NCBI GenBank assembly: GCA_027492735.1
Contig: JAPUEE010000005.1
Coordinates: 65,719 to 129,718, forward strand
Reading direction: 5' to 3'
DNA: 64,000 nucleotides
Origin: Candidatus Saccharimonadota bacterium
Lineage (GTDB): Bacteria; Patescibacteriota; Saccharimonadia; Saccharimonadales; Saccharimonadaceae
In this document: piece after piece, positions 1 through 48,817 of the stretch
How positions within the stretch are numbered: position 1 is the first letter of the stretch
Layout: each line of letters opens with the position of its first letter
Translations under genes and position numbers: made by a program
The notes under the pieces: generated by a model
What the model was told of the DNA's origin: nothing
The model's database searches: none
What the model saw: the letters and a program-made list of their open reading frames with translations, nothing else

Positions 1-993
1 ATGATGATGGGTGCAGATATTATCATTATTGACCCAGAGAACGAGTATCAAAAACTCTGCGAAGCTGTTGGCGGATCGTATATTCATCTCAGTTTAAATA
101 GCGATACCAGGGTCAATCCGTTTGACTTGCCGCAGGTCACGGACAGCGAAGATGGCGAAACGAGTGATGCTCTGCGTGCCAACCTGGTGACGCTACACGG
201 GTTGCTCCGTTTAATGCTTGGTTCAGGCCAGGTGGCGGCGAGTGGTGAGGTGGTCAACGTACTATCACCGTCCGAAGAAGCTGATTTAGACCAGGCATTA
301 ATTGATACGTATGCTAGGGTCGGCATCACGTCAGATCCTTTGACGCATAATTCACCACCACCGGTGATGGCGGATCTCTATGATACATTGGCACATATGG
401 GTGGCAATGGTCCACAGCTCGCTCAGCGACTTCGTCAATACACCACTGGTACATTCGCCGGTATTTTTAGTCAGCAATCTAACGTTGCTATCGATAATCG
501 CATGGTAGTATTTAATATTCGTGATCTCGAGGATGAACTGCGACCAATTGCGATGTATATTACGCTCAGCCATATTTGGAACAAAGTTCGCACCGATCAA
601 CGCAAACGCATGCTGATCGTTGATGAGGCATGGCAGCTCATGAAATATCCTGATTCAGCGAATTTCATGTTCTCTCTGGCGAAACGAGCCCGAAAATACT
701 ATTTGGGTCTCACGACGATTACACAGGACGTCGAAGACTTTATGGGGTCTGAGATGGGCCGGGCTATTGTGGCGAACGCCTCAATGCAGATTCTATTGAA
801 ACAGTCGCCATCGGCCGTTGATGTTCTAGGGCAGGTATTTAAACTGACGGATGAGGAATTGAAACGTTTATCGAGCTTTCCAGTGGGACAGGGATTGTTC
901 TTTGCTGGCCAGAGTCATGTACACATTCAGATTATTGCCTCGGCAACTGAAACAGATCTCATCACGACCAATCCGCGCGCTGCTCGAGAATAG
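1..993 (+). CDS. VirB4/TraC/TrbE-family type IV secretion ATPase, C-terminal part (5' end outside window)
   Basis: ORF is open from the window edge. Walker-B-like MLIVDEAWQLM is followed by KRARKYYLGLTTITQDVEDF, the arrangement typical of VirB4-type conjugation ATPases. Confidence 0.75.
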   Translation: MMMGADIIIIDPENEYQKLCEAVGGSYIHLSLNSDTRVNPFDLPQVTDSEDGETSDALRANLVTLHGLLRLMLGSGQVAASGEVVNVLSPSEEADLDQALIDTYARVGITSDPLTHNSPPPVMADLYDTLAHMGGNGPQLAQRLRQYTTGTFAGIFSQQSNVAIDNRMVVFNIRDLEDELRPIAMYITLSHIWNKVRTDQRKRMLIVDEAWQLMKYPDSANFMFSLAKRARKYYLGLTTITQDVEDFMGSEMGRAIVANASMQILLKQSPSAVDVLGQVFKLTDEELKRLSSFPVGQGLFFAGQSHVHIQIIASATETDLITTNPRAARE

Positions 994-1049: not shown

Positions 1050-4000
1050 ATGAAATCTCGTAGGTGGGGAAGCCGTTTTGTTGTATTGCCAGCAATTTTA
1101 GGTCTAATGGTGGCGACGATGGCGACACTATTGAGCGGAAGCTCGGCTTTTGCATACACGGCAGTCGGAGCTCCGGGAAAGATAGGGGACATACCAAAAG
1201 TAAAGCAACAGGCGGCCTGGAATACCCTGGGCTGTTTAAACGCATTGAATCACCCCGCTAGTGATTCTGACACAATAAATGGGATCAATGATATTACGAG
1301 CTTTAATTGGCCGTCTAGCGGGTGGACCAGTAGTGGCAACAATGGTGACTTGAGACTGGGTATTGCAACTAGCGGCGGTGTGTACGCAGATAAGAGTCAA
1401 AATACCGGGTGTACCAAAGAGGCAACACCATATGCCTTTACTGCACTTGGCAAGAATATAAGCGCCAGTAGCAGTACTGCGGACAAGATGAATCTATTGT
1501 GTGAGATAGGCTATACTCAAACAAAAATGTCTAGTAGCTCGAGTACAGCCCCTAGATCTAACTGTGCTAGCACCACAACACGGGGCAATGATGATCAGTT
1601 TGCGCACTCCGCAGGTGCTACGCAGTGGACATTGCCTGCGCGACCGTTGACGCGCGAGGCTGAATTGTATGTTACTTTTGCCACTATGATATCCGATTCG
1701 TCCAACTCGGGTGATTGCTGGAAGCCGGCCACTAGTGATGGAACAACAGTTGCGGGCTATACGCAGACTAATATTATAACTATAGGGACGAATGCCGATC
1801 GGCTACTTGTCAAGCCTATTCTATGGAAAGATGGTTCTTCGTGCTGGGGTAGCGAATACGTTACAACCAATAGTGCCACAACTCTCAGTAGCTATGCTCA
1901 AGCTTTCTCCAATGAAACTGGTATAAAGATTGGTGTTGATGATGGCGATGGTAGTGCAACCGATCCGACCGATCCTGATAGTAGCAATACCGATGTTGGC
2001 ACTGCCCAAGATCCGTGTTACGCTGCTCAGACTCATGGCTTTGGTTGGATTGTTTGTCCGGGCCTCACATGGATGACTGCTGCTATTGATGGACTCGTTG
2101 GATGGATCACTGGCGGATTACAGTGGACAATGTTGACAGATACAACTGGCAATAGCGGGACGACCATTAGAGATGTGTGGGCCTCGATGTTGGGTATTGC
2201 TAACATAGCCTTCGCAATCGTTTTTATGATCATTATTTACTCAACAGCAACATCGTCAGGAATCAGTAATTACGGTATTAAAAAGATACTGCCTCGTCTC
2301 GTGGTCGCGGCGGTGGGTGTCAACTTGTCATTCTATATTTGTGCCGCTGCTGCCGATCTATCCAATATCGCAGGTGTGGGTCTGAATGATCTGATCATGT
2401 CTAGAATGTCGGGTGGCAATAGTCCGGCCGGTATGTTTGGCACTCTATTTGACGGGGTATTGCAGGCTGCAGTGACACTACTGATAGTGATTTTCGCCTG
2501 GGCAACGGTATTTATTGGACTCCTGACGATATTTGTTGCTATAGCATTGCGAGCCGTAGCATTGACCATGCTAGTGATCGTTTCACCGTTAGCTATCGTT
2601 GCGTCGTTACTGCCCAATACTGAAAAGTGGTTCAAAAAATGGCGCGATACATTTATCCAGTTATTGGTGGTCTATCCGGCCTTCATGGTGGTTTGGGCAG
2701 GGTGTCGTCTGGTAGCTAACGTAGCTACCGAGACAGGAGCTGACTGGAGTTGGTTGATGGCTTCATTGGCTACTTTGGCGCCATTGGCTGTTATTATTCC
2801 ATTATTCAAATCAACTAGCGGTCTCATGGGCAAGATGACGGGATTGACAGAAAAAGGTATCGGTATGGCGGGCGGCAACCAATTGAAAAACCTCAACAAA
2901 AAAAGCAATGCTTATCTCAGGGATAGATCTGCGAGAGTTGCAAAAAATGTTGTAGCGGGTGGAATTGCAACAGCGAATCAAGAGGCTAATGAGAGAGGTA
3001 AGGAACTTGCTGAGCTCGAGAAAAAGAAGGCGCAATCATGGACCCAAGCTGACGCAGCCAGGCTAAAGAATTTCAATGACAGAGTGATTGCCGGAGGCAC
3101 ATTAACGGGGGACGAGCTAAAGGAACATGCTGCGTTAGCCAAGAAACAGGTTGAGAATGCCGCAGGGACAGTTCCAACTTGGGGCAGCGGGGATGAGGAA
3201 ACACTTGGCAAAGCTCGTACTGCGAAAGCGATGGCTGATCGGAAATACTCGCGACGAGCAAACGGTCTTTTGCGTAAAGGTGTTTTCCTGGCGTCTGATA
3301 TGCGATTCACAAAGGCCAACCGAGATGCCGAGACCAAGCGGACCGAACAGGGCGAACTAGCCCGCCGTCTTTCCGAGGATCAAGCTTACCGCGCACGCTA
3401 CTCTGGTGTAACTAGAGGGATGCCAGAATCTGAGTCGGCTGATCGAATGAACCGAGCGTTAGCTCAGGCGTCGGCAATTGGCAACAAAGCTGGCGATGAA
3501 GAGCGTAGCAATTTTAATTCACTGCTCGGTGATTCAAATTCGATAGGGGAGCATGCCGAAGACAAAGCCACCGGCAATTACGAGGATCGTGTATTCGAGA
3601 ATCCAGAGAACTTTAGTAATGCGCAGGCGACAAAACTAGCGACCGATCATGATTATTCGGTGACTATTGATAACAAGGGTGTGAAACGTACGCTCAACTG
3701 GAAAACTATGAACGATAACGAGCGACTTGTTGTATTCCAAAAGGCAGCGAAATTTGGTTCAAGCCCCGAGGTCGCATCCATCCGTAATGCCCAGGCAACG
3801 GGTAAACTATTTGATGATCCGGCCCTAAGTGATGTCGCTGCTAGTATGGTTGTGCAGTCTGGTAACAAAGACTTCTTGGTTCAGGGTGCTAACGTAGCAA
3901 CCCTAGCTGCCGGTAAACCAATAAGCACTGTAGATCAGATTATCAATGTTTCCAAAGCTCCTATACCAGGTAGTGTCATGGGCCAGTTTGACAAGGCGGC

Positions 4001-4307
4001 AGCTTGGGCGGATACGGTGGGTAGTATAAATGAAGTTCGGGATCGCATGATGAGTGGCGATACGAATGCGACAAATAGTTTGGTTAACCTAGAGAATGCG
4101 ATTCGTGCTAACCTAGCTCAGCCGAATGCCTCGCGCTACATTGCTGCGGTTGGCGCTGAGTACCGCGATATCCTGAGAGCAGCCCAAATGGACGATGCTG
4201 ATATTCAAGCCCTATTTAACAGTACCGGTGCCGACTCAAAGGTGGTTGGTGATGCAATGACCAGAGATGCAATAAAGCCTAACGATATAAAGCTAAAAAG
4301 CTCTTAG
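1050..4307 (+). CDS. Large secreted/polytopic membrane protein, candidate VirB6/TrbL-like T4SS channel component with about 480-aa hydrophilic C-terminal extension
   Basis: 1085-aa ORF starting 57 nt after the VirB4-like gene. Signal-like N-terminus (RFVVLPAILGLMVATMATLLSGSSAFA), Ser/Thr/Cys-rich ectodomain, block of about 7 hydrophobic helices (aa ~335-600), then a charged Lys/Ala/Glu-rich tail. Family call rests on position and topology only. Confidence 0.6.
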   Translation: MKSRRWGSRFVVLPAILGLMVATMATLLSGSSAFAYTAVGAPGKIGDIPKVKQQAAWNTLGCLNALNHPASDSDTINGINDITSFNWPSSGWTSSGNNGDLRLGIATSGGVYADKSQNTGCTKEATPYAFTALGKNISASSSTADKMNLLCEIGYTQTKMSSSSSTAPRSNCASTTTRGNDDQFAHSAGATQWTLPARPLTREAELYVTFATMISDSSNSGDCWKPATSDGTTVAGYTQTNIITIGTNADRLLVKPILWKDGSSCWGSEYVTTNSATTLSSYAQAFSNETGIKIGVDDGDGSATDPTDPDSSNTDVGTAQDPCYAAQTHGFGWIVCPGLTWMTAAIDGLVGWITGGLQWTMLTDTTGNSGTTIRDVWASMLGIANIAFAIVFMIIIYSTATSSGISNYGIKKILPRLVVAAVGVNLSFYICAAAADLSNIAGVGLNDLIMSRMSGGNSPAGMFGTLFDGVLQAAVTLLIVIFAWATVFIGLLTIFVAIALRAVALTMLVIVSPLAIVASLLPNTEKWFKKWRDTFIQLLVVYPAFMVVWAGCRLVANVATETGADWSWLMASLATLAPLAVIIPLFKSTSGLMGKMTGLTEKGIGMAGGNQLKNLNKKSNAYLRDRSARVAKNVVAGGIATANQEANERGKELAELEKKKAQSWTQADAARLKNFNDRVIAGGTLTGDELKEHAALAKKQVENAAGTVPTWGSGDEETLGKARTAKAMADRKYSRRANGLLRKGVFLASDMRFTKANRDAETKRTEQGELARRLSEDQAYRARYSGVTRGMPESESADRMNRALAQASAIGNKAGDEERSNFNSLLGDSNSIGEHAEDKATGNYEDRVFENPENFSNAQATKLATDHDYSVTIDNKGVKRTLNWKTMNDNERLVVFQKAAKFGSSPEVASIRNAQATGKLFDDPALSDVAASMVVQSGNKDFLVQGANVATLAAGKPISTVDQIINVSKAPIPGSVMGQFDKAAAWADTVGSINEVRDRMMSGDTNATNSLVNLENAIRANLAQPNASRYIAAVGAEYRDILRAAQMDDADIQALFNSTGADSKVVGDAMTRDAIKPNDIKLKSS

Positions 4308-6052
4308 GCACTATAATCAAGCTGCGCTAGACGGCGGCGTTTCTCGGCAGCCTTGGCGGCGGCTTGGTCGAGATGAGCTATTGCGGCATAACGTCTATGA
4401 TCAGCATACCCATAGAGAGGTTGACCAGATCGAGGCAAAATAATAGCTAGGTTTAGGCCAGCATTGGCGCTACCTACCAAGGCGTCGCCTATGTTAACTA
4501 GACCGCTAACTAGACAGGAGACTCGCCCCATTCCAGCTACGCGCGAGGATCTTAGTACGTTTTTTGCGTCGGCGGCAAAGAGAACATCGTGAAGTTCCGT
4601 TGGCGTTAAATTGTTATAGTCGATACCGTTAGCCGTGAACATCTTGACTAACATCCCCTCTTCGGCGAACAAGATCTCATCGAGGTCTTTACGCTGTTCT
4701 TTGGCGTCCAGATCCAGACCTTCTTCGGCGTGAATAGGGTGGTCACGCCACTTGTGTTCAGTTCGCCATGCCATATGTGCCAGGGCGGATAATCTACCAC
4801 CGCCAACTTTGCGGTCGTGTTTTGCTAGCAGATCTACTACCTTTTTTAGATCATCGGACATGTTGCTATCCTCTAGACGATCAGACATCAATTTGCGATC
4901 ACTACGTAACTGAGCCAGGTCTTCGGCACGTTTTTGTTTGCGCTGCTGGCGGGCGCTCGGTGGCAATGTTAAAAATGAATCAATTTTGGCTTGGCGATTA
5001 ACGATTGCTTGAGCGGCCTGTTTGGTGGCTTTTTCCTGAGACTCATTAAATAGATCATTGGCCATTCGATCGGTCTCAGCCGATAAATCCGAAGTGAGAT
5101 TTGACCGCTCTAGATTTTTGGCTAGGCGTTCCAGATCAGATTCTAATTTTTTAGCTTGGGCTTGACGCTGGACGGTTATTGGATCCGGGAGTTTAACCTT
5201 GGGATCAGCTTCGGATAGGGCAATTTCTCGTTTTAGGGAGCGTAACTCCTCGTTGATGCGGAGAACGTCAGCCTTCCAGCCAGCTATTTCTTTGAGTTTA
5301 GGCTCATCCAGTTTTTCATTTTCGACTGGAGTGATGCGAATACCCACCTGGGGCTCTGTGGACGACGGCTGTTGATTGCCCGATGTAGATGATCTAGGCA
5401 TAGGGTTGCCTGGGCTAGTAGGCCCGCTAGGGTTGGTAGGTCCAGCCGGGGCTGATTGATTACCGGGAGCTGCGCCAGGTTGTGTTGGCGAATTGGTATT
5501 GCCAGCAGGAGTTATAGTGATTGCTGGTTTTGTATTGCCTGATGGCTGGTCTGTCTCTGATGGTGTCGTGCTCTCATTACTAGGAGGAGTTTCTTCAGGA
5601 ATAGCCGTAGTCTCTGTCTGATCGATAGCCTCTTCGGATACACCAGGTATTTCTGGGTTCTGACTCTGGTCTAACAGGACCTGTAAATACTCATCGCTTC
5701 GCGCACTATTTCTCGATTTACTACTAGAATTTCGTAGCCATATCTCATCTGCTAGGTGGAAAATAGCAGGCATATCTGGATTATTGCGCCTGGATTCAAT
5801 AAAGCCACGTACGGCACGAGGATTTTTCTCGCGCTGCATCAGTTCAGCTGGACTAGAGAACACCTGGTCCTCATAGGATAAATTAGCAACGAGCGCTTCG
5901 GCCTGCTGTTTGAGAGACAGCTCATCAGGATTCGGATCCGCTGTGACCGAGTCGATAGCCGCGTCAGCTACCTCGCGCTGGATAATTGGATCCGCTAATC
6001 GCTCAGCATTTTCAGGGGTGTTTATCGTATTTGATTTTTCATGATGAGACAT
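4304..6052 (-). CDS. Hypothetical protein with Pro/Ser/Thr-rich linker and coiled-coil region (T4SS-locus associated)
   Basis: Track ORF is 4304..6208. I prefer the Met at 6052 (MSHHEKS) because the 52 upstream codons are AT-rich hydrophobic read-through into the divergent promoter region. Its stop is convergent with and overlaps the stop of the 1085-aa gene. Confidence 0.6.
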   Translation of the reverse strand: MSHHEKSNTINTPENAERLADPIIQREVADAAIDSVTADPNPDELSLKQQAEALVANLSYEDQVFSSPAELMQREKNPRAVRGFIESRRNNPDMPAIFHLADEIWLRNSSSKSRNSARSDEYLQVLLDQSQNPEIPGVSEEAIDQTETTAIPEETPPSNESTTPSETDQPSGNTKPAITITPAGNTNSPTQPGAAPGNQSAPAGPTNPSGPTSPGNPMPRSSTSGNQQPSSTEPQVGIRITPVENEKLDEPKLKEIAGWKADVLRINEELRSLKREIALSEADPKVKLPDPITVQRQAQAKKLESDLERLAKNLERSNLTSDLSAETDRMANDLFNESQEKATKQAAQAIVNRQAKIDSFLTLPPSARQQRKQKRAEDLAQLRSDRKLMSDRLEDSNMSDDLKKVVDLLAKHDRKVGGGRLSALAHMAWRTEHKWRDHPIHAEEGLDLDAKEQRKDLDEILFAEEGMLVKMFTANGIDYNNLTPTELHDVLFAADAKNVLRSSRVAGMGRVSCLVSGLVNIGDALVGSANAGLNLAIILPRSGQPLYGYADHRRYAAIAHLDQAAAKAAEKRRRLAQLDYSA

Positions 6053-6134
6053 ACCTACATAGTAGCAAATTTTAATGATTTTGTCAATGCTTATATTGTT
6101 ATTTTTCATAGCTGTTATGGTAAAATATATACAT

Positions 6135-8993
6135 ATGAAAAGTGTGATGCGCCGATTTGGACTGGTATTCTCTGTCATAGCTCTATTATTGTCGGCAGTT
6201 TTTAACATTCTAACTGCATCGGATGTACTGGCGGCGCCTATCGAGAAAAAGCTTGAATATAAAAAAGTCGCCGAGATAACAAAAAATTGCCCTGTTACGC
6301 AAGGTTCAGCAAGCGATGGAACTTATGTTTATGTGGCATGTAATTATGACGATAATACAAAAACCCAATTAGTTAAATTGAAATTAGATGGTACAGAGGT
6401 CATGCGTAAAGACATGAGCGGCAAGCTCGGACACGCTAATGATATGACGTATAACAGCAAGCGAAAACTACTAGTGGTAACTCTGTGGAATTTCTCAAAA
6501 GATAATGGCAAGGTGGCGCTCGTTAGTCCTGATGATTTCTCCATCATAGGCGATGCCAAAGCAGATTCCGGTTCGTGGAGCAATCTCTGTTATAGTGCAG
6601 CAAAAGGTCAATATGTGTCGAACGGGGTGGTATTCGATGAAGATTTCAAAAAGGTCAAAACCTTGTTTAACAATAGCATCATGGACAAGTACGCGAACGG
6701 CGGTACCAATCAAGGTATGACTTGCGATGAATCTTATATCTATACTATGCGTGGTGGCCTAGGTGGTGGCGCAACGAGCTACACGGGTAAATTCAAAATC
6801 TTTATTTTCAACTGGTCGGGCGAATTATTAGAAGTTTACGATATGTGGATTAATAAATGGGCAGAGAACGAGAGCATGTTTGTAGCAAATGGCAAACTGT
6901 ATCTAATGATCAATGCAACTGGAAAAGGGGCGGGTTCGTTTAATGAACAATTCGGAACTATCGAAGGAGCTACAACAGGGCAGGGTGAGACTAGTGCGGG
7001 CGCATCACATCCACTAACGCTCGGTTCATATAATCTTCACGGCACTCTGATAAATAATGAATCTGCCTGCGAAGCCAAGGCTCGTTTTGATGTGGCCGCT
7101 AACAACATTATCTCTATGGGTATGGATATTGTTGGTATGCAGGAATATAGCGACTATGATGACAGTAAATCACCCGACTGCAATGGCCAGCAGGTAAAAC
7201 TGCTCGATAGTCTGAATAATCTCACGGGCGGTATTTGGAAGGCTACGGCACTACCGGAGGGCTATGATGGCGGCGGATATCAGGAATCCCAGGCGAGCAT
7301 TCTCTACAATTCCGTAGTTACAAAGCTAGTATCTGATGAGGCGAAAAATGTTGATGGTGGTGCGATCAAGGATGATGGTTGGAAAGGCGTCAATAATTGT
7401 CATGGCGGATCTCCAATTCATCATATAGCTGGATTTTCTGATGCCAGCGGTAATACTTTCTATGTTGCCAATGGTCACTGGTGCACTCAAAATGGTAGCC
7501 AGCGCAAAAAAGATACAGAGGCTATCGTAAAAATTATGAGTGAATATTCTGGACCGAAGTTTATTATCGGTGATACTAATTCGCAGGTTGGAGAAGAAGT
7601 TGAAAAAGTCATGGCGATCGACAAATACGACGATTCGCATATAACCGCTGCAACCAAGAATGCAGCAGAGTACGGCACCATGGCGGGCAATGGTAAAGGC
7701 GGCAATATTATTGATCGCATTTATTACGAAGAGGCTACTATATCGACACCGTCAACTTATACGACCTTGAATTGCAAAAAAGCTACGACCTGCGGTTCCG
7801 ACCATCGACCGATTTCAGCAGTTTTCCCATCGATTTTGGTAGGAGCTGGCAATCAGAACTGTAGCGGCGATCAAAAGGCAGTTTTTGATGCGGGGGTTCC
7901 GTATTATAATGTGAATGCATGTATGTGTTCAGCAGGGAGTTCTGGCGATTCTACTATGTCGGGTGATACGTTAGCCGAGCAAGCTTTCACCTTCCTCGTT
8001 TCGACAGGCGTTGAGTCAAACGATGGTAAACCGCTCAATGCTGCTCAGGCAGCAGGCATCATTGGCAATCTGATGATCGAGACAGGCGGCAACACTTACG
8101 ATCTCAAGCCAGATGCAGTTAATAGTATTGGGGCGAGCGGTATTGTGCAGTGGCTCGGTGGTAGAAAGACGGCTCTCGATAAATTTGCTGCGAAAAAAGG
8201 TGGCGATTGGAAAGATTTCAAGATCCAGCTAGAATTTATGGTTCATGAGCTTGAAACTGGATATAAAAAGGCAGTAATGGAGGGCAAGAGTGGCTCATCA
8301 AAGACTGTCGACAAAGGACTCAAAAATATTACGGATATTAGCGAACAGGGTGCAAAGGATGCAGCTGATATTGTAGCGAGATATTATGAGATTCCTAGTA
8401 TCTCCGATGCCTATCCTAATCGACAAACTGCAGCAGCCAAAGCTTTCAATGATTTCAAAGATAGTGCACCAGGGGCTTCTAGTTTAGTGGGGGCTTCGGG
8501 TGACTGCGCTAGTAGTGATGACTCTGTCGGGAGTGGTGACGCGCAGGCACTGATTGACAAGGTAAAAGAGTTTGCTTGGGCGGATGGCCGACGTGGCTCA
8601 AAACAAAAAGAAGCCTATACGGCGGCTCTAAAAGGTCGCTACAAAGGTGGAAATAACGGAAACGACTGCGGGGCTTTTGTGTCTGCTCTAATGGTTAAAA
8701 GTGGATTTGAGCCAGATTATCCAGGGACCAACACGACCGGGCAAAAAGCCTGGTTGGATAAACACTGGAAAAAGATAGCGAGCCCCGGACAGATAAATGT
8801 TGCTGATTTACAGCCAGGCGATGTTGCAGTCATTGGCGGCAGTCACGTCTTTGTTTGGATCGGTGAGGTCGATGATTTTGTCGGCAAGAGCGCCGAGGCG
8901 GCTCTCGGTAGCAACACTGCTCCAACAGCGATCACCAAAGGTAACACATTTAGCCTGCCTTCGAAATATAATTGGTATAGGAAAGAAGACTAA
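6135..8993 (+). CDS. Secreted multidomain hydrolase: N-terminal beta-rich domain, endonuclease/exonuclease/phosphatase (EEP) domain, phage-tail-lysozyme-like domain, NlpC/P60- or CHAP-like peptidase
   Basis: Start chosen at MKSVMRRFGLVFSVIALLLSAVFNILTASDVLA (signal peptide). EEP hallmarks are LTLGSYNLHG ... GMQEY ... CGSDHRPISAVF. Lysozyme-like motif is AAGIIGNLMIETGG ... GIVQWLGGRK. C-terminal Cys/His pair is NGNDCGAFVSAL ... GGSHVFVWIG. Confidence 0.8.
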   Translation: MKSVMRRFGLVFSVIALLLSAVFNILTASDVLAAPIEKKLEYKKVAEITKNCPVTQGSASDGTYVYVACNYDDNTKTQLVKLKLDGTEVMRKDMSGKLGHANDMTYNSKRKLLVVTLWNFSKDNGKVALVSPDDFSIIGDAKADSGSWSNLCYSAAKGQYVSNGVVFDEDFKKVKTLFNNSIMDKYANGGTNQGMTCDESYIYTMRGGLGGGATSYTGKFKIFIFNWSGELLEVYDMWINKWAENESMFVANGKLYLMINATGKGAGSFNEQFGTIEGATTGQGETSAGASHPLTLGSYNLHGTLINNESACEAKARFDVAANNIISMGMDIVGMQEYSDYDDSKSPDCNGQQVKLLDSLNNLTGGIWKATALPEGYDGGGYQESQASILYNSVVTKLVSDEAKNVDGGAIKDDGWKGVNNCHGGSPIHHIAGFSDASGNTFYVANGHWCTQNGSQRKKDTEAIVKIMSEYSGPKFIIGDTNSQVGEEVEKVMAIDKYDDSHITAATKNAAEYGTMAGNGKGGNIIDRIYYEEATISTPSTYTTLNCKKATTCGSDHRPISAVFPSILVGAGNQNCSGDQKAVFDAGVPYYNVNACMCSAGSSGDSTMSGDTLAEQAFTFLVSTGVESNDGKPLNAAQAAGIIGNLMIETGGNTYDLKPDAVNSIGASGIVQWLGGRKTALDKFAAKKGGDWKDFKIQLEFMVHELETGYKKAVMEGKSGSSKTVDKGLKNITDISEQGAKDAADIVARYYEIPSISDAYPNRQTAAAKAFNDFKDSAPGASSLVGASGDCASSDDSVGSGDAQALIDKVKEFAWADGRRGSKQKEAYTAALKGRYKGGNNGNDCGAFVSALMVKSGFEPDYPGTNTTGQKAWLDKHWKKIASPGQINVADLQPGDVAVIGGSHVFVWIGEVDDFVGKSAEAALGSNTAPTAITKGNTFSLPSKYNWYRKED

Positions 8994-8994
8994 T

Positions 8995-9621
8995 ATGTTA
9001 CGAGAAATTATCAAACCCATTCACATCATTATATTGTCGGTTTTTGTGTTAGCTATAGTGGCGATAGCGGTATGGTCAAATGTTTATCAGGCAAGCAATC
9101 CGATCACTATTAGTAAAGTCCCTACCGATGCAACGGTATATATTAACGGGAAAGAAGTTTCGGGTGATCGTACTAATCTCGCGAATGGGGCCTATACGGT
9201 CAAGGCCACCAAAGATGGTTTTTCTAACTACCAGGATACGGTTATTATAGATGACAACAGCAAATATATCGTCGTGGCACTAGAGCCTGAATCCGACTCG
9301 GCAAAGCAATGGGCCGAGGATAATCAAGATTTATATCTAACACAAGAGCAAATCACCGGCTCTGAAGTCATGGAATCTGGAGCGTCGGTATTAGAGAAAA
9401 ATCCGCTCATTGAAGAGTTGCCAATCCAGGACGGACTTTACTCGGTAGGGTATATCATGGATAGCAGCGATAGCTCTGGCAACTCAGTAATTATTACAGT
9501 TGATACGACTAATGGTTATCGTAATACTGCTATAAAGAGCATTTACGACGCAGGATACGATCCTGCAAATTATAAGATTCAGCTAGAAAACTATACTAAT
9601 CCGTTCAAGGAGTATAAATAA
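8995..9621 (+). CDS. Membrane-anchored PEGA-domain protein
   Basis: ATG at 8995, 1 nt after the upstream stop. N-terminal TM helix IHIIILSVFVLAIVAIAVW. PEGA-like motif PTDATVYINGKEVSGDRTNLANGAYTVKATKDGFSNYQDTVII. Confidence 0.7.
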   Translation: MLREIIKPIHIIILSVFVLAIVAIAVWSNVYQASNPITISKVPTDATVYINGKEVSGDRTNLANGAYTVKATKDGFSNYQDTVIIDDNSKYIVVALEPESDSAKQWAEDNQDLYLTQEQITGSEVMESGASVLEKNPLIEELPIQDGLYSVGYIMDSSDSSGNSVIITVDTTNGYRNTAIKSIYDAGYDPANYKIQLENYTNPFKEYK

Positions 9622-10310
9622 TGTTTAATCTATCCGCGTTAAAGCTCAATCAATCAACTATAAAAAGAGCTGCGATTTCACTCGTTGTTGCGGTGATTTT
9701 GATTGGTGGCGGTTGGTTTGTGATTGATTGGTTATCGTACAAGAGTGTGACTTTTAATCTGTCATCGAACACGAAATCCATCGCCGTTTATGATGAAGAT
9801 CAATATGAAACATACGCTAAATCCGAAGGCAGCAGTTCGGCGGCAAATGATGGCAAGCTTGAGTCAACTGGTACGCTGCGTCTCCGGACCGGAACTTATT
9901 ATGTGGTGCCAATGGGTGACGATATATCGCTCGATAAGATCAAGATTCAGATCAATGATAATACGAAATCAATCGATATCAAACCGTATTATTCGGATGA
10001 TTACCTAACTAGCAATTTCTCGGATCAGATGGCCGCAATTAATACTACTATATCTGATAAATACGCTGATATTATTTCCGATTATACGATAGATAATGGT
10101 ACGTTTTATCATTATGGCGACTGGTATGGAACCACGTTATATAGTGAGGTTACTAGGGAAGGTGGATCTGATACGTATGGCATTATATTGCATAACGTCG
10201 ATGGCGTGTGGCGGATTGCTGCCGCACCAGAACTGGTATTCCGCTATAGCGATCACAAAGATATACCGACAGACATCATAGACGCTGTTAATCGAAGCGC
10301 AAACGATTAG
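9621..10310 (+). CDS. Hypothetical membrane-anchored protein
   Basis: 229-aa ORF with ATG overlapping the upstream stop (TAATG). One N-terminal TM helix (AAISLVVAVILIGGGWFVI). No recognisable motif. Confidence 0.6.
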   Translation: MFNLSALKLNQSTIKRAAISLVVAVILIGGGWFVIDWLSYKSVTFNLSSNTKSIAVYDEDQYETYAKSEGSSSAANDGKLESTGTLRLRTGTYYVVPMGDDISLDKIKIQINDNTKSIDIKPYYSDDYLTSNFSDQMAAINTTISDKYADIISDYTIDNGTFYHYGDWYGTTLYSEVTREGGSDTYGIILHNVDGVWRIAAAPELVFRYSDHKDIPTDIIDAVNRSAND

Positions 10311-11307
10311 CCGCATTGTGTCTGGTGGTTATAGTAGTTGCGAATAAATAATTGTTATTAAATATAGTGTTCAGATATAAATTTTTTTGGTGAGTGCTGT
10401 CGAGTTCGCTATCAATATCGTCGAATAACAGATAAATATTGGAGCCTAACTCTTGGTTAGCGAGTTCAATCATGCTATATAACATGGCGAAAATTATTGT
10501 TCGATTCTCGCCGCGAGACGCAGTGGTCTTGGCATCGTGATTGTTGATCTTGATTTTGATATCATGTGTTTGAGGACCAGATCTCGTAAACGGGAGATTC
10601 GAGGCATATTCTTCGTCAAGCTGAGAGAGGATCGCCGCCCGGGTTTTATGACTAGCGCTGTAGCCTAGAGAGATCTCATCATGCGTATTCGCAATGGCCT
10701 GGTACTGTTCGGTTACTCGTGCTCCGATTTTCTTTATCCATGTGGTTCGTGCCGAGATAATCTTTTCAGCTAAATCGGCAAATTGTATATCCCAGACAAA
10801 TAGGTTACTACGGGCAGCACCATTTTTTAGTAAATTATTACGCTGTGACAAGACTCGCTCAAAACGACGCAAAGTACTGGCGTGAGTGGGGTCGACCTGG
10901 GCAATAAATCGATCAAAAAAAGTGCGACGTCTATTGGGAGAACCATAGAGCAACTGCAGATCACTCGGCTCAAACAGAATAACGGGCTTTTTGAGGCGTG
11001 CCGGTAGTCTCGTGTAGGACTGGTCATTAATGATGAACGATTTTTTGTTGTCGATGAACTTTACCGTACGTTTTTCGCCGTCAGTGAAATCGATATCGAG
11101 TCGCCACCAGTCAGTGTCCTGGTTATTTTTTATCATCTCAGTAAAATCTGAGCGCCAGCTTTTGCCTTGGATGGCGATATGGATAGCTTCGATGAGAGAG
11201 GTTTTGCCACTGCCGTTTGGGCCAGTAATAATAGTAGTGCCGGGTTGAAATGTTGCTTCAAAATCTTCGTGTTTGCGAAAATGTTGTAGTCGGACTCTAG
11301 CAATCAT
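10288..11307 (-). CDS. recF: DNA replication and repair protein RecF
   Basis: 339 aa. N-terminal Walker A ITGPNGSGKTSLIEAI and C-terminal LLFDDIDSELD (Walker B / SMC-like), as in RecF. Confidence 0.85.
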   Translation of the reverse strand: MIARVRLQHFRKHEDFEATFQPGTTIITGPNGSGKTSLIEAIHIAIQGKSWRSDFTEMIKNNQDTDWWRLDIDFTDGEKRTVKFIDNKKSFIINDQSYTRLPARLKKPVILFEPSDLQLLYGSPNRRRTFFDRFIAQVDPTHASTLRRFERVLSQRNNLLKNGAARSNLFVWDIQFADLAEKIISARTTWIKKIGARVTEQYQAIANTHDEISLGYSASHKTRAAILSQLDEEYASNLPFTRSGPQTHDIKIKINNHDAKTTASRGENRTIIFAMLYSMIELANQELGSNIYLLFDDIDSELDSTHQKNLYLNTIFNNNYLFATTITTRHNAANRLRFD

Positions 11308-43118: not shown

Positions 43119-43353
43119 TGTGATCAGTCTAGTCGAAAACGACTGGAGGTTTCGGTTGAGTTTTGTGAAACGAGGTGTCCTACGGTGTTGCCCCTAGGGG
43201 TGGCATAGATGGGAGCTGCCGTTTCGCGCGCTCCCGTTTTGACAATTTGTTCATCTTTATATTCATGACACACCCGAAGTCTTTTGTCGTTTTCGAATGG
43301 CGAAAAGTCCACGGGGAGGTCTCGTGGCAATCGTTCCAATGAAAGGGGACGGT

Positions 43354-45534
43354 ATGAGAAAGTTGGTAGGACTGGCCTGTGCGCTGGTCCTCACGGTGCT
43401 CGGGGTCATCGCCCCGGCATCAACCGCGTCCGCCCATCAGGGCAACATCAAGGTCTCGGACACGCAGTGCGTGGACGGGAACTCGATGAAGGCCACCTAC
43501 ACCGTAGGTTGGTCCAACGGCACCGGTAGCGGCAAGCTCTACACCAAGAGTGGGCTGTACAGCGGTGGCACGTCAACGTCCGGGTGGGACTTCGAGAAGA
43601 ACGTCTCCGGCGCGTCCGGCAGCGCGTCCTTCACGAAGACCCACACCTTCTCGGGCTCCAACGGCCCGTGGGTGGCGTTCAAGATCATCTTCGACGACAA
43701 CTACGTGGTCGGCGGAGATACCCGCGTCGAGGGCTGGGATTGGGACAAGTGCAAGCCTGCACAGCCTGATCCCAAGACCGTCACCGATCACGAGGAGAGC
43801 TGCAAGATGGCCATGCCGTCGGGCAAGCTCGGTGGCGAACGTGACCGCACCGGTACTCAGGCCTACGTCTGGAACGGATCCAGCTGGGTGCTCGGCGACA
43901 CCATCAAGTGGGGCGACTGGAAGTACACGCCCTACACCGACAGTCAGTACTTCAGCAAGTGTGCCGGGGACAATCCCGGCCCGAAGTACAGCGAGTGGTC
44001 ATCGTGGTCCAACGAGCAGCCGACCTGCGAGAGCACGATGGTGACGCAGACCCGGACGCGCACGAAGACCACTTACACCTGGGTCTGGAACGGCATGAAG
44101 GATCGTGGTGACTGGGTCGTCGATGAGGTGACCGAGGACAAGGAGACCCGCAAGGTCGAGATGTCCGACAAGGACTTCGCGGCCAACTGCAAGCCCGACC
44201 AGCCGGCGCCCAAGGCGCACACCGATTTCCAGAAGGGTTGCACCCTGAACGACGTCGGCGGCACCGCCACTAGGAACGGCACCGAGGCCTACAAGTGGGA
44301 CCTCGAGGATCGCAAGTGGGTCCTCAGTGGCAAGATCGACTGGCAGGACTGGGTCTTCACGGCCTACACCGACCAGGAGTTCCAGGCCAACTGCGCAGGT
44401 TCTCCCGAGCCCGACAAGGTCGTGGTGGACAAGGGCGAGTGGGTCGGGCAACCGACCTGTGATGCTCCCTCGATCTACCAGACTCGCGAGGTGGTCACGA
44501 CGACCACCAAGCAGGTCTGGAACCTCGATCTCCGCAAGTGGGAGTGGGGGACGCCGACCTCGGTAACCACCACGGAGACCGCCAAGAAGCCGACCGAGCT
44601 GACCAAGGATCAGATCAAGGCCTGCCATCCCAAGGATGCGCCGACCTTGGCCTACACCGGTCAGACCTGCACCGTTGGTGATCAGGGAGTCGGCCAACTT
44701 CACGGCGGCAGCCTGACGGTTACCAGCAGCGGCTGGACCGTCAAGGTCACCGACAAGGACGGGAAGGTCGTCAAGGACCTGACCGATCTCGATCCCGGCA
44801 ACTACACCGTCACGGCCAGCCTGGCCGATCCTGACGGTACCTCGGCTGGGAACATCGACGGCTGGACTCCGGGCGAGGACGGCACGATCAGCCAGATCGT
44901 CAACATCGCCACGGCGGACGACTGCACCATTCTCGAGCCGAAGCCCCGCGTGGAGCCCAAGGTCGAGGAGAAGCTCGAGTGCGACGGGGCCTACCGCCGC
45001 ACCTGGGATCTGGTCAGCTATCCCGTCTGGAAGGACGGGGAGTGGACCTTTGACGGGGTCGAGCCCAAGGTCGAGAACGAGACCGAGTGGAAGAAGTTCC
45101 GCGAGCTGTCGAACGACGAGTGGTTGGCCGCTGGCTGCCGCTCTGACCAGCCGCCGGCTCAGGTTCGTGTGATCCACGACCAGGGTTACAACTGTGATGG
45201 ACTCTGGGGTCGTACCCAGACCGGTACCACCGAGTACGTGTGGGTATGGTCCGGCATGGCCGACCGTGGCAGCTGGGTCCTCGGCGACGAGGTGCTCGGC
45301 GACTGGAGCGAGTGGACGTTCGTCCGCGAACTGACCAAGGCGGAGAAGGCGGAGTTGGGCTGCAACAGCACCCCGAATTCGCCGAATCAGCCGAAGGTGC
45401 CCCCAGTAGACGAGGACAACAGCGATGGCGTTCGCGCCGCCGCTGACCCTGCGCCGCTCATTGGCCTGGGTGTTCTCGCCGCGCTCGGCATCGCCGGTGC
45501 AGTCATTGCCATCCGGCGCCGCCGTCAGGCATGA
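43354..45534 (+). CDS. Secreted Cys/Trp-rich repeat surface protein with C-terminal TM helix + RRRR anchor (no LPXTG)
   Basis: ATG at 43354 after GAAAGGGGA. Signal peptide MRKLVGLACALVLTVLGVIAPASTASA. Six modules of about 55-70 aa are bracketed by Cys and rich in Trp/Tyr. C-terminus is DPAPLIGLGVLAALGIAGAVIAIRRRRQA. Confidence 0.8.
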   Translation: MRKLVGLACALVLTVLGVIAPASTASAHQGNIKVSDTQCVDGNSMKATYTVGWSNGTGSGKLYTKSGLYSGGTSTSGWDFEKNVSGASGSASFTKTHTFSGSNGPWVAFKIIFDDNYVVGGDTRVEGWDWDKCKPAQPDPKTVTDHEESCKMAMPSGKLGGERDRTGTQAYVWNGSSWVLGDTIKWGDWKYTPYTDSQYFSKCAGDNPGPKYSEWSSWSNEQPTCESTMVTQTRTRTKTTYTWVWNGMKDRGDWVVDEVTEDKETRKVEMSDKDFAANCKPDQPAPKAHTDFQKGCTLNDVGGTATRNGTEAYKWDLEDRKWVLSGKIDWQDWVFTAYTDQEFQANCAGSPEPDKVVVDKGEWVGQPTCDAPSIYQTREVVTTTTKQVWNLDLRKWEWGTPTSVTTTETAKKPTELTKDQIKACHPKDAPTLAYTGQTCTVGDQGVGQLHGGSLTVTSSGWTVKVTDKDGKVVKDLTDLDPGNYTVTASLADPDGTSAGNIDGWTPGEDGTISQIVNIATADDCTILEPKPRVEPKVEEKLECDGAYRRTWDLVSYPVWKDGEWTFDGVEPKVENETEWKKFRELSNDEWLAAGCRSDQPPAQVRVIHDQGYNCDGLWGRTQTGTTEYVWVWSGMADRGSWVLGDEVLGDWSEWTFVRELTKAEKAELGCNSTPNSPNQPKVPPVDEDNSDGVRAAADPAPLIGLGVLAALGIAGAVIAIRRRRQA

Positions 45535-45583
45535 TGTGAGAAGATGAACAAGTGCGAACTGCCAGCCAGGTAGCTCGCTCCCT

Positions 45584-45688: not shown

Positions 45689-45778
45689 AGAAAGTGCGCC
45701 TAGCAACAGATGCAAATCTGACTGGGCTTACCTCGAAGTAATCAATCTATCCATAATCCACAGAAGGTGGTGAACGTA

Positions 45779-46477
45779 ATGAAGCGCACAGTACTTGCCA
45801 TGCTTTGCCTGGCGGTGAGCGCCGCGTCGCTGTTCGGTGCCTTCTGGTACTGGAACAACGTCTACGCGGAGATCGAGGTCCCGATGGCCCCAATTCCGTC
45901 GCCAACGGTATCGTCGATCACGGTGCCGGTGAACGACGACGAGAAGCTCCCGCCGGTCGACATGCCGGAGAACCCTCGCGGCAAGCTAGATCACCTCGTT
46001 ATCTACCACGGTGGCAAGGCCATCGTCTCGATGGATTTCGGTCCAGCGACCTACGATTCCCTAGGGTGGGGATCCGAGTGCGGCAAGGTGGCCTATCGCG
46101 ACCGCGACGACTTCCCAAAGCCTGGTTTCGCCAGCAAAAACCGTTCGCTCGTGTCAGGTCACGTCTGGTGTGATAGGGAAACCTATACGCTAAACGATCT
46201 GGACAAGGTTCGGAAAGGTGACCGGGTTGAGGTCTACTACTCGTCCGGAGACGTGGCGGTAGGTCAGGCTGAGGCCGACGCCGCCGCCCTGCCGAAGGAC
46301 GAGCTGAATGCTGAACACAAGGGTCAGGTCAACCCCCGGCTCCGCAACAGCAAGAAGCTACGGACGATGCGAGTCAGTACCTGTGACACTGACTCGCCGG
46401 TGCGGGCGAACGGCCACTTGTCGGCCAACGTCTACGTACTGTACACGTTCAAGGAAATCAGATTTGCCGAACAGTAG
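45779..46477 (+). CDS. Membrane-anchored sortase-like transpeptidase (class E/F-like)
   Basis: 232 aa. N-terminal TM helix. His motif SLVSGHVW, then DKVRKGDRVEVYYSSGDV, Cys motif TMRVSTCDT and NVYVLYTF, in the order and spacing seen in actinobacterial sortases. High GC3. Confidence 0.6.
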   Translation: MKRTVLAMLCLAVSAASLFGAFWYWNNVYAEIEVPMAPIPSPTVSSITVPVNDDEKLPPVDMPENPRGKLDHLVIYHGGKAIVSMDFGPATYDSLGWGSECGKVAYRDRDDFPKPGFASKNRSLVSGHVWCDRETYTLNDLDKVRKGDRVEVYYSSGDVAVGQAEADAAALPKDELNAEHKGQVNPRLRNSKKLRTMRVSTCDTDSPVRANGHLSANVYVLYTFKEIRFAEQ

Positions 46478-46536: not shown

Positions 46537-47715
46537 TTAGACATTAAATCGGAATTCGACGATGTCATCAGGCTGCATAATGTAGTTTTTGCCTTCGGTG
46601 CGAAGTTTGCCGGCAGCTTTGGCGGCCGCTTCTGAGCCTAGCTCGATCAGATCCGGATATGAAACAATCTGAGCAGCAATAAAGCCTTTTTCAAAGTCAG
46701 TGTGAATGACGCCGGCGGCCTGTGGGGCGGTCGAACCTTGTGTGATGGTCCAGGCGCGAACCTCTTTTGGTCCAGCCGTCAAATAACTCTGGAGACCTAA
46801 CGTATCATAGGCGGCGTGCGCCAGTTTTACGAGGCCGGATTCAGTAACGCCGTAGTCGGCGAGCAGTTCGGTGGCTTCGACGGCGCTCAGCTCGCGGAGT
46901 TGGCTTTCGAGTTCGGCGCAGACAAAGACAACCTGCGGACCGCCTGATGATGATAGCTCTCGCGAACGCTCCGCGCGCCCGTCGTTACGGGGCTTGTCGC
47001 TGGCGCCATTGCCGTCCTGCTGGAGCCTCGCGAGAGCCACATCATCACCGATTATTCTAGCTAATTCCTGTTGCTTTGTCTGGTCAGTCAATCCGTTCTC
47101 GTCGACATTGAACAAATAAATTATTGGTTTAGCAGTTAACAGATCGAGACCGTGTAATTTTTCGCTATCAAAACTAGCTGGTGTATTGCCAGCGAGCAGC
47201 TGACTCTGGAGAGTTGTGAGATAGTCGACAGTGGAGCGCATCTTTGGATCACTCTTGGCTTCTTTCATGACCTTTGGTAGATGATTTTCGATGGTGGCGA
47301 TGTCGGCGAGCATGAGTTCGGTGTTGATGACTTCGATATCGCTCTTCGGATCAGTAATCGTGGCGCCATCGGCTCTCTGGACGGTTGATGACTCAAACGC
47401 TCGAACCACGTGACAAATAGCGTCACATTCACGAATATTGGCGAGGAATTTATTGCCGAGACCTTCGCCACGACTAGCGCCTGCTACAAGACCGGCGACG
47501 TCAACAAATTCCACGGTAGCGGGGATGATCTTGTCGGTTTTATACAGGTCTGCGAGTACGTCGAGGCGCTCATCAGGAACTGGTACGATGCCAGTATTAG
47601 GTTCGATTGTCGCAAATGGGTAGTTAGCAGCTAAAATAGTGCCGCCTGTCAGGGCGTTAAATAGGGTGGACTTACCAACGTTGGGTAACCCGACGAGACC
47701 GATCTTGAGACTCAT
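46537..47715 (-). CDS. ychF: Ribosome-binding ATPase YchF, with about 30-aa internal insertion
   Basis: GLVGLPNVGKSTLFNALT G1 motif. C-terminal TGS-like GKNYIMQPDDIVEFRFNV. 392 aa, against about 363 typical. Confidence 0.9.
   Translation of the reverse strand: MSLKIGLVGLPNVGKSTLFNALTGGTILAANYPFATIEPNTGIVPVPDERLDVLADLYKTDKIIPATVEFVDVAGLVAGASRGEGLGNKFLANIRECDAICHVVRAFESSTVQRADGATITDPKSDIEVINTELMLADIATIENHLPKVMKEAKSDPKMRSTVDYLTTLQSQLLAGNTPASFDSEKLHGLDLLTAKPIIYLFNVDENGLTDQTKQQELARIIGDDVALARLQQDGNGASDKPRNDGRAERSRELSSSGGPQVVFVCAELESQLRELSAVEATELLADYGVTESGLVKLAHAAYDTLGLQSYLTAGPKEVRAWTITQGSTAPQAAGVIHTDFEKGFIAAQIVSYPDLIELGSEAAAKAAGKLRTEGKNYIMQPDDIVEFRFNV
46956..47037 (-). repeat. GC-rich in-frame mini-insertion, copy 2 (in ychF), with 10-bp terminal inverted repeats
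   Basis: GCTCTCGCGA (46956-46965) and TCGCGAGAGC (47028-47037). Encodes LARLQQDGNGASDKPRNDGRAERSRE. Homologous to the argS patch. Confidence 0.6.
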
Positions 47716-47736
47716 GCTTCTATTCTACAAAAAGGC

Positions 47737-47766
47737 TTGCCTTTTGAAAAGCGATTATGGTATAAT
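47737..47766 (+). promoter_or_regulatory. Promoter TTGCCT-15 nt-TGgTATAAT, -10 ends 7 nt before the pilM ATG
   Basis: -35 at 47737-47742 and extended -10 at 47758-47766. It lies back-to-back with the ychF TAGAAT box (47722-47727, minus strand). Confidence 0.55.
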
Positions 47767-47773
47767 TCTGCGC

Positions 47774-48817
47774 ATGGGCATAAAGAAATCAATAGGGGAC
47801 TTTTTTGCACTTGACATCGGTACCACAGCACTACGCGTCGTAGAGTTGTCGCACTCAGGTCAAGGCTGGAACTTGAAACATTACGCGGTAAAACCGATCG
47901 AAGCACGTCTCAGTGAGTCGACCGCCGAAGCCGATAAACACAACCTAGCACAGGCTATTTCTGAAGTTGTCGCAACATCTGGTGTACGTACCAAAAATGT
48001 AGCAATTGGTGTACCTTCGTCAAAGATGTTTGCATCAGTTGTTGAGGTGCCGAATGTTCCGAAAGCAGAATTAAGTGCCACAATTAAATACCAAGCTGAA
48101 AACTATGTTCCAATGAAGCCCGACGAGGCCAAAATTGACTGGGCAGTAATCGGTGAGTCAACGACTGATCGACAAAAAATCGAGGTGCTGGTTGCTAGCG
48201 TGTTAAACTCATTCACTGAGGCTCGTCTCGATATGCTCGAAGAGCTAGGATTCAACGTTGTAGCTATTGAACCGGATGCGCTAGCAGTGACGAGGGCATT
48301 ATTACCTGATGGGGTACAAGACGGTCGTTTAGTAATCGACATGGGCGATTCATCGACCGATCTCGTGTTGACGCTAGGTTCGGTGCCACGCTTGATTCGA
48401 TCGTTACCAATTGGTTTTAGTACTCTCGTAAAGTCAGCTAAACAGAACCTCAATATTGAGGAACAACAAGCTCGTCAATTATTGTTGAAATTTGGTGTAT
48501 CACCAGATAAACTCGAAGGCCAGTTGGCTCGTTCGGTTGACAACAGTCTCGATCAATTACTCGCAGAAGTTCAGAAATCCCTGAAATTCTTTGCTACGAA
48601 ATATCCAGGTGTCGGTGTTGGCGCTATTCTTTCGAGTGGCTACAGCGCATCACTCCCTGGTCTCGTTGATTTAATCAGTCAGAAGTCTGGCGTCGTTAGC
48701 CAAGCTGCAACACCATGGCAGCATGTTAACGTTCCTAGTAATGAACAGGCTAATTTGGCACCGTTATCGTCACAATTTGCAGTGGCGGTTGGACTGGCTG
48801 AGAGGATAGGAGTCTAG
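47774..48817 (+). CDS. pilM: Type IV pilus assembly protein PilM (actin-like ATPase fold)
   Basis: ATG at 47774 (MGIKKSIGDFFALDIGTTALRVVEL). The track ORF upstream extension overlaps ychF. Confidence 0.8.
   Translation: MGIKKSIGDFFALDIGTTALRVVELSHSGQGWNLKHYAVKPIEARLSESTAEADKHNLAQAISEVVATSGVRTKNVAIGVPSSKMFASVVEVPNVPKAELSATIKYQAENYVPMKPDEAKIDWAVIGESTTDRQKIEVLVASVLNSFTEARLDMLEELGFNVVAIEPDALAVTRALLPDGVQDGRLVIDMGDSSTDLVLTLGSVPRLIRSLPIGFSTLVKSAKQNLNIEEQQARQLLLKFGVSPDKLEGQLARSVDNSLDQLLAEVQKSLKFFATKYPGVGVGAILSSGYSASLPGLVDLISQKSGVVSQAATPWQHVNVPSNEQANLAPLSSQFAVAVGLAERIGV

Follow-up and report, generated by a model that had tools for sequence, protein, structure and literature searches.

Results

The 64,000-nucleotide stretch of Candidatus Saccharimonadota bacterium analysed here (contig JAPUEE010000005.1, positions 65,719 to 129,718 of the forward strand; hereafter the window, in whose own numbering positions are given) carries, next to genes of a type IV secretion system (T4SS), a gene for an exported, multidomain cell-wall hydrolase. 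An earlier note on this DNA had described the product as a secreted protein of 952 aa with four parts, a description which is borne out, the nucleotide ranges then proposed agreeing with ours within a few codons. The gene is a single intact open reading frame (ORF) encoding four domains; the frame is open from 6075, and the start at 6135 (MKSVMRRFG...) is common to all homologue N-termini in the family alignment. Its features, with the evidence used for each, are the following.

6135..8993 (+): gene for the 952-aa exported hydrolase (ORF list, homologue-matched start, checked translation); stop codon at 8991-8993
6135..6236 (+): signal peptide or signal anchor, residues 1-34 (MKSVMRR, hydrophobic residues 8-28, then ...VLA/AP)
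6240..6989 (+): five-bladed beta-propeller of the phage receptor-binding "platform" type, residues 36-285 (AlphaFold2 [AF2] model, Foldseek, family profile)
7008..7838 (+): endonuclease/exonuclease/phosphatase (EEP) domain, residues 292-568 (Pfam, family profile, AF2, Foldseek, motifs)
7032, 7143, 7476, 7572 (+): EEP catalytic residues N300, E337, H448 and D480, respectively
7578, 7713, 7800-7805 (+): EEP catalytic residues N482, D527 and D556-H557, respectively
7839..7961 (+): Cys-containing linker, residues 569-609 (C576, C596 and C598 conserved in the family alignment)
7962..8459 (+): lysozyme-like domain of the phi29 gp13/phage tail-lysin type (PF18013), residues 610-775
8079-8081 (+): predicted catalytic Glu of the lysozyme, E649 (alignment to gp13)
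8532..8990 (+): NlpC/P60-type Cys/His peptidase, residues 800-952 (family profile, PF00877)
8667-8669 and 8844-8846 (+): predicted catalytic C845 and H904 of the peptidase

An assembly chimera or a split ORF, the latter a possibility raised by the earlier note, was ruled out, because the window protein is matched colinearly over its full length by homologues that were assembled independently (NCBI, ENA, JGI and Logan); P0002, for instance, also has 952 aa, is 86% identical over 100% of the length and stands for 26 member sequences. Residues 8-28 are the sole hydrophobic segment of the hydrolase (Kyte-Doolittle maximum over 19 residues of 2.48, at residue 8), and the candidate cleavage site behind them was placed by eye on the sequence. 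In the family alignment R6, R7, G9 and L10 are nearly invariant, that is, the signal region holds a family-wide RRFGL motif (residues 6-10, window 6150..6164) in which twin Arg are followed by x-G-L, and this conservation could indicate a signal of the Tat (twin-arginine translocation) type rather than a Sec signal.

Searches with the full-length hydrolase gave no matches, either among the PDB sequences by phmmer or in NCBIfam, and within the window no second copies of its four domains were found. Because these direct searches were empty, family profiles were needed for domain assignment, and it is these profiles together with predicted structures, not the window sequence by itself, that carry the EEP, NlpC/P60 and PF21311 assignments.

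The N-terminal domain had previously been described as beta-rich, which it is: the AF2 model, built on a 21-sequence alignment, reaches a pLDDT of 90.1 and a pTM of 0.90 and has about 20 strands in 250 residues, a number which fits five four-stranded blades. It can now also be given a name, since Foldseek, the family profile and PF21311 matches in the family all point to a propeller of the phage receptor-binding type. In Foldseek searches of the PDB propellers in general were matched, among them a five-bladed glutaminyl cyclase (TM-score normalised to the query, TMq, 0.63-0.64), and the receptor-binding protein (RBP) of phage phi11 (5efv), whose platform binds wall teichoic acid sugars, stood among the top matches (E 1.4e-8, TMq 0.60-0.66). 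In BFVD, which holds predicted viral structures, the top three (TMq 0.67-0.68, E 1e-12 to 5e-9) were phage proteins, of which one is annotated as a tail spike, one as a pectate lyase and one is uncharacterised, with a staphylococcal phage tail fibre and the neck appendage of GA-1 in the next ranks. The propeller family profile matches PDB entry 9m7x (E 2.9e-4 over about 65 residues), taken as gp18, the RBP of Brochothrix phage NF5 (PMC12917162), because the chain lengths agree and the gene numbers of that paper equal the PDB molecule names plus one; the five-bladed platforms of phage RBPs bear the receptor-binding sites (PMC12917162). PF21311 ("phage 5-bladed beta propeller receptor binding platform") is matched by 4 of 21 family members (best E 6.6e-5), and the window propeller sequence gave no match to it. 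The likeness to the known platforms (phi11 Gp45 in 5efv, NF5 9m7x and PF21311) lies in the fold, the blade number and, for the family as a whole, a sequence similarity that is weak though specific. In contrast to them, the window propeller comes without stem or tower domains and with no sign of a trimer, at 12-16% identity, and NHL and glutaminyl-cyclase propellers obtain similar Foldseek scores. By fold and blade number, the modelled domain agrees with a phage receptor-binding-type platform. Some propellers of the family are fused straight to the lysozyme or peptidase without an EEP, and in P0045 (414 aa; 6001..7245 of L009/L010), encoded outside any T4SS locus with FemAB and glycosyltransferase genes among its neighbours, the same propeller family is fused to PG_binding_1, a fusion which independently supports a role of the propeller at the wall.

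The second domain had been recognised as an EEP domain by the motifs LTLGSYNLHG, GMQEY and SDHRP, an assignment with which the AF2 model, Foldseek and the PF03372 matches of the family agree. All eight catalytic residues are in place in the window EEP, which holds the full set N, E, H, D-x-N, D and D-H, and the eight are intact in 29 of the 31 EEP domain instances of the family; an invariant Cys pair, C547/C553, lies before the SDH motif. PF03372 aligns to the domain over profile positions 2-225 of 225 with 18 bits for the full protein and 22.6 bits for the domain alone, below the cut-off of 24.5, and is matched at E 0.1 or better by 16 of 17 family EEPs (best E 4.5e-13). Against the PDB, the family profile finds 3l1w (E 1.4e-7) and 3g6s (E 5.8e-7). 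The AF2 model (pLDDT 94.2) gave 136 PDB matches at E <= 0.001 in Foldseek, and the 50 listed are all EEP-family enzymes. The best is 3g6s (BVU_0621; E 9.4e-17, TMq 0.73), followed by 3mpr and 4c1r (E 4e-16 to 6e-15) and by 3l1w from E. faecalis (E 2.8e-15), a group with TMq of 0.67-0.73 and 16-17% identity. BT3783 is the protein in both 3mpr (apo) and 4c1r (Mg2+ form), a glycan mannose-6-phosphatase whose activity was assayed on phosphorylated sugars and which acts on phosphorylated mannan glycans of yeast (PMC4978465). BT3783, a Mg2+-dependent enzyme, and the secreted EEPs BVU_0621 and 3l1w are thus the best structural and profile matches to the window EEP, but they are single-domain proteins in polysaccharide-utilisation contexts. 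The invariant Cys pair before SDH is a further difference of the window EEP. When an index of 5.8 billion proteins was searched with the EEP profile, only one stand-alone EEP, P0168 (31% identity), was found.

The third domain, earlier noted as lysozyme-like, is matched by PF18013 with an E-value of 3.1e-24. Its family profile finds in the PDB 9m7n (E 2.8e-13), the 915-residue tail-associated lysin (Tal) of Brochothrix phage NF5, and phi29 gp13 (3csr/3csq, E 5.5e-12); counted from the first aligned residue (17), E649 falls on residue 45 of gp13, a Glu which we take to be the catalytic one. When the hydrolase was compared by tblastn with 50,697 phage records, only the lysozyme region gave matches, in 304 records, within tail lysins and tape-measure proteins; identities were 29-44% in the rows listed and did not reach 60% in any. 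A glycosidase of the SLT, FlgJ-glucosaminidase or CwlT type was considered and ruled out, Pfam returning only PF18013 and the PDB profile search returning no SLT or CwlT entries. The muramidase of the PrgK/TcpG kind that the earlier note had in mind has accordingly to give way to one of the phi29 gp13/phage tail-lysin kind. With gp13 and the NF5 Tal the window protein shares a homologous lysozyme domain and a build which would suit the opening of a Gram-positive wall from outside; it differs from them in being probably Sec-exported, encoded with a T4SS and no part of a virion, and in having NlpC/P60 instead of M23.

Taken alone, the window peptidase is weakly recognised (NLPC_P60 E 0.022; PF00877 15.2 bits, below the cut-off of 23). 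The Cys/His peptidase proposed in the note is nevertheless upheld by its family, of which 12 of 23 members match PF00877 (best E 9.8e-6) and whose profile finds Spr/MepS (2k1g, E 1.6e-4) in the PDB. In that alignment DCGAFV falls on DCSGFV, with the Cys, and GSHVFVWIG on GrHVGIYIG, with the His, and the predicted catalytic residues C845 (in NDCGAFV) and H904 (in GSHVFVWIG) are invariant among the family peptidases.

The genes around the hydrolase are the following.

1..993 (+): VirB4-like T4SS ATPase gene, 3' part, cut by the window edge (PF19044 TraG P-loop, E 7.5e-24)
1050..4307 (+): 1085-aa TrbL/VirB6-like polytopic T4SS protein (weak TrbL_4 match)
4304..6052 (-): 582-aa divergent gene between the TrbL-like gene and the hydrolase (ORF, no recognisable domain)
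8995..9621 (+): PEGA-domain exported protein (PF08308, E 8e-7), beginning 2 nt after the hydrolase stop and translationally coupled
9621..10310 (+): third gene of the unit, overlapping the PEGA gene by 1 nt; 229-aa product with a hydrophobic helix at its N-terminus (no Pfam match)
10288..11307 (-): recF, a conserved flank showing that the locus lies near oriC

The order VirB4, TrbL-like protein, hydrolase, two small exported proteins and RecF is found in the window and in L001, L002, L003, L007, L008 and L011, and in all seven of these loci the hydrolase in this slot bears an EEP. Upstream, L001-L003 have pilin arrays and PrgI and TraC-like genes, and beyond recF dnaN and dnaA follow in L001, L007, L008 and L011. 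The TrbL-like counterparts match PF19590 TrbL_3 in L001 and L002, and the one in L003 has no Pfam match. The PEGA gene keeps its place in L001 and in Southlakia (SEML1_0005, essential), while the first downstream gene of L002, L003 and L011 encodes a protein of 503-507 aa with no Pfam match; a counterpart of the 229-aa protein occupies the same position in L001-L003, L007 and L011 and in Southlakia (SEML1_0004). A scan of GTDB species genomes with the full-protein alignment and two peptide patterns only returned no relative, which suggests that the hydrolase lineage is poorly represented among them, and a RecF-anchored scan of GTDB yielded three Saccharibacteria loci at 38-57% identity, placing the lineage in Saccharibacteria/Saccharimonadaceae. 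In two of these loci, L005 and L006, a two-domain enzyme of 364-418 aa, read as lysozyme plus Cys peptidase, is all that lies in the slot from the TrbL-like gene to recF; the domain models matched the Cys peptidase only in L005 and the lysozyme only in L006, the other domain of each being read from the sequence.

Some observations concern the neighbours themselves. The TrbL-like protein of this lineage is without the C-terminal VanY/M15 peptidase domain seen in counterparts, namely those of L005 (read from the sequence), L007 and L011 (PF02557 VanY) and SEML1_0007 (DD-peptidase fold); the hydrolase variants P0033, P0040 and P0052 have instead an M15/VldE-like domain at their own C-terminus. 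The 582-aa product includes a stretch rich in Pro, Ser and Thr as well as segments resembling coiled coils. L001-L003 encode counterparts of 495-626 aa, L005-L008 and L011 none, and a good sigma-70-like promoter match faces the gene (TTGACA-17-TACTAT with TG, 6087..6059).

All of 1.84 billion representative proteins were searched with the profile, and mapping of the domains on 167 fetched proteins completed the survey of the fusion that the earlier note had called for. Lysozyme plus Cys peptidase is the common architecture (87 of the 167), and about 20 clusters at 50% identity bear one or two EEPs on this scaffold. Together with the small size of the same-slot enzymes of 364-418 aa, this agrees with the previous remark that an EEP is unusual on a T4SS hydrolase. 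The N-terminal options are the propeller, a second EEP, or Y_phosphatase3 (a CX5R phosphatase) ahead of the EEP, as in P0007, P0024 and P0032, and those at the C-terminus are NlpC/P60, M23 or an M15/VldE-like domain. Identity to the window protein changes from domain to domain: P0007 has a lysozyme 93% identical and a different N- and C-terminus, P0004 is 83-85% identical throughout except for its peptidase (45%), and P0006 is 35-58% identical except for its peptidase (82%). Judged by these mosaic identities per domain, the pattern is one of domain-level recombination, with cassette-like swaps between relatives.

Discussion

From its siting in a T4SS cluster, beside VirB4 and VirB6-like genes, the protein is a T4SS-associated wall hydrolase, as the earlier note had proposed, and the arrangement recurs in six other loci. 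The Saccharibacteria T4SS hydrolase and its essentiality are already known. In Southlakia epibionticum ML1 the same slot encodes SEML1_0006, composed of a glucosaminidase, PF18013 and a cysteine proteinase (PMC10633639), and SEML1_0006, needed for epibiotic growth, and its neighbours are essential in transposon sequencing (PMC10633639 Tables S1/S2); "peptidase and lysozyme homologues" of the Saccharibacteria T4SS have been proposed to stand in for VirB1 (PMC12102498). The two proteins share the slot (VirB4, a large TrbL-like protein, hydrolase, PEGA protein, small protein and RecF) as well as PF18013 and a C-terminal cysteine peptidase, but SEML1_0006 (643 aa) starts with a glucosaminidase (PF01832) and has neither propeller nor EEP, which the window protein has in that place. 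Likewise, the monoderm enzymes PrgK of pCF10, TcpG of pCW3, TraG of pIP501 and CwlT of ICEBs1 are encoded in T4SS clusters, are N-terminally anchored or exported and combine a cleaver of glycan strands with a Cys/His peptidase (CHAP or NlpC/P60), whereas the glycosidase of the window protein is of the phi29 gp13/PF18013 kind. An EEP or a receptor-binding propeller on any of these four was not found in the searched literature, and we know of none; nor did that literature contain an earlier account of Saccharibacteria T4SS hydrolases fused to an EEP or a propeller, or of the shuffling of these modules.

On this basis we propose, with somewhat more confidence than doubt, that the protein is a phage-tail-like, wall-breaching enzyme, the wall hydrolase of a chromosomal Saccharibacteria T4SS, with the host wall as its most likely target. 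It would be exported by its N-terminal signal peptide or anchor and play the part that VirB1, PrgK, TcpG and CwlT play in other T4SSs. The propeller, we infer, would dock the enzyme on a cell-wall glycopolymer, and the EEP, of the Mg2+ type, would cut a phosphate ester in a wall polymer, for example a teichoic-acid-like phosphoglycan or a linkage unit. The phi29-gp13-type lysozyme would then cleave the glycan strands and the NlpC/P60 endopeptidase the peptide stems, so that the wall would be bound, stripped and locally opened to give passage to the T4SS pilus or channel. The wall in question would most likely be that of the Gram-positive host carrying the epibiont. A single Gram-positive siphophage, NF5, supplies the match both to the propeller (its RBP, 9m7x) and to the lysozyme (its tail-associated lysin, 9m7n), and sister variants pair the lysozyme with M23, as in phi29 gp13. 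Due to this resemblance to a phage tail tip and to the exchange of cassettes, action on the host wall is favoured rather than proven.

The strongest competing explanation is the classical role in cis, in which the enzyme remodels the wall of the epibiont itself for assembly of the T4SS or its pilus and the propeller and EEP act on its own wall polymers. VirB1, PrgK, TcpG and CwlT are cis-acting T4SS wall hydrolases, and the N-terminal anchor or signal of the window protein resembles theirs. In addition to this established function (summarised in PMC12102498), the hydrolase is counted as co-transcribed with conserved genes of the T4SS locus. Housekeeping of this kind, however, does not obviously explain a phage receptor-binding-type module and leaves the cassette-like exchange of N- and C-termini among close relatives unexplained, and in most Saccharibacteria a two-domain enzyme suffices. 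We regard the role in cis as a real possibility, to which perhaps one chance in a few should be given, and infer host-wall rather than own-wall action.

Under the wall-breaching hypothesis a further proposal can be made, although only tentatively, for the variable N-terminal part: its modules may be cassettes for host specificity and envelope stripping, exchanged as phage RBPs are, in which the propeller would read the host wall glycopolymer and the EEP would cleave phosphodiester-linked wall polymers. The structural ranking of the modelled EEP suggests that it lies nearer to glycan-phosphatase-like or secreted bacterial EEPs than to nucleases, and hints at a substrate class without settling it. 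The earlier note had suggested that the EEP could degrade nucleic acid or lipid of the host, which the ranking does not favour, BT3783 and the secreted bacterial EEPs standing ahead. A secreted DNase or RNase, which would degrade host or environmental nucleic acid after the breach and feed the nucleotide-auxotrophic epibiont, seems to us rather unlikely. DNase I, CdtB and ExoIII do belong to the superfamily, streptococci have EEP nucleases anchored to the cell wall, no catalytic residue of the window EEP is missing, and DNase1L3, CNOT6L, nocturnin and TDP2 are among the Foldseek and profile matches. In the Foldseek list, however, nocturnin, CNOT6L, TDP2 and DNase1L3, like neutral sphingomyelinase and beta-toxin, rank lower (E 1e-12 to 1e-10), the E-values of the nucleases being worse by 4-5 orders of magnitude than those of the Bacteroides/Enterococcus group; DNase1L3 (7kiu) comes at rank 39 (E 6e-11), and CdtB and DNase I are not among the 50 listed matches. 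Moreover, the EEP is always embedded between wall-binding and wall-cutting modules, the hydrolase is without a nucleic-acid-binding domain, and the viability of Southlakia is unaffected by loss of DNA uptake (comEC), according to a review (PMC12857230).

Still less probable, in our opinion, is an EEP acting in the manner of a phospholipase C or sphingomyelinase, or as an inositol-phosphate phosphatase, on lipids of the host membrane or on lipoglycans, for instance the glycolipids of Actinobacteria that are anchored by phosphatidylinositol, with lipid supply or permeabilisation of the host as the outcome. Neutral sphingomyelinase (8j2f, E 3e-11, TMq 0.68) and beta-toxin of S. aureus are Foldseek matches, and the Y_phosphatase3 placed before the EEP in P0007, P0024 and P0032 recalls the layout of synaptojanin, a Sac1 plus 5-phosphatase arrangement. 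Saccharibacteria are, in addition, without fatty-acid synthesis (PMC10633639). These matches nevertheless rank below the glycan-phosphatase group, and besides the signal peptide no hydrophobic segment for membrane insertion was detected in the hydrolase. Finally, a prophage tail-lysin or receptor-binding gene unconnected with the T4SS can be rejected as scarcely credible, since, even if the closest characterised relatives of lysozyme and propeller are phage tail proteins, there are no other phage genes nearby, the slot between T4SS genes and recF is fixed in seven loci from different assemblies, and nothing beyond the lysozyme region matches in the phage records.

Several points weigh against the proposal that the hydrolase breaches the host wall with the help of its N-terminal modules. 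T4SS hydrolases classically act in cis, on the wall of the producer, and the present data are compatible with such action here. The window sequence by itself falls under the Pfam cut-offs for EEP and NlpC/P60 and gives no PF21311 match. The preference for a glycan-phosphatase-like EEP is a ranking and not an exclusion, with TM-scores of 0.67-0.73 vs 0.58-0.68 and 12-17% identity to all matches, and three of the four top structural neighbours are without an assigned function. In P0006, a relative of 948 aa and the exception to the intact catalytic set, the EEP carries the substitutions H448N, D480N and D556T while the rest of the protein is conserved; this EEP is probably catalytically dead, as judged from the residues replaced, and EEP catalysis would therefore be dispensable in at least one lineage.

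If the proposal for the N-terminal modules is true, the EEP would be the first known enzyme of its family to cleave phosphodiester-linked wall polymers (teichoic-acid-like or linkage units), possibly a new substrate class for EEP enzymes, and the hydrolase would determine which host an epibiont can parasitise via its T4SS, a system without which the only Saccharibacterium amenable to genetics does not grow as an epibiont. The hydrolase is also a case in which a secretion system reuses modules of phage tail tips. The enzyme offers a testable handle on two questions, namely how an ultrasmall epibiont crosses a thick Gram-positive wall and on what its host range is based.

Other features of the window

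Further downstream, an ORF of 745 aa (43297..45534, plus strand) lies in a segment of 61.7% GC (44001-46000), compared with about 47% in the rest of the window. Its product has an N-terminal signal, Trp/Cys-rich repeated modules, a C-terminal hydrophobic helix and an RRRRQA tail, and no Pfam match. A sortase-like gene follows at 45767..46477 (plus strand; PF04203, E 3.6e-4). Horizontal acquisition of a surface protein anchored by sortase is thus possible, and an actinobacterial source would fit the high GC of the segment. A PilM gene at 47639..48817 (plus strand; PF11104, E 2.1e-36) marks an assembly locus for the type IV pilus, the other envelope machine reported essential in Saccharibacteria.

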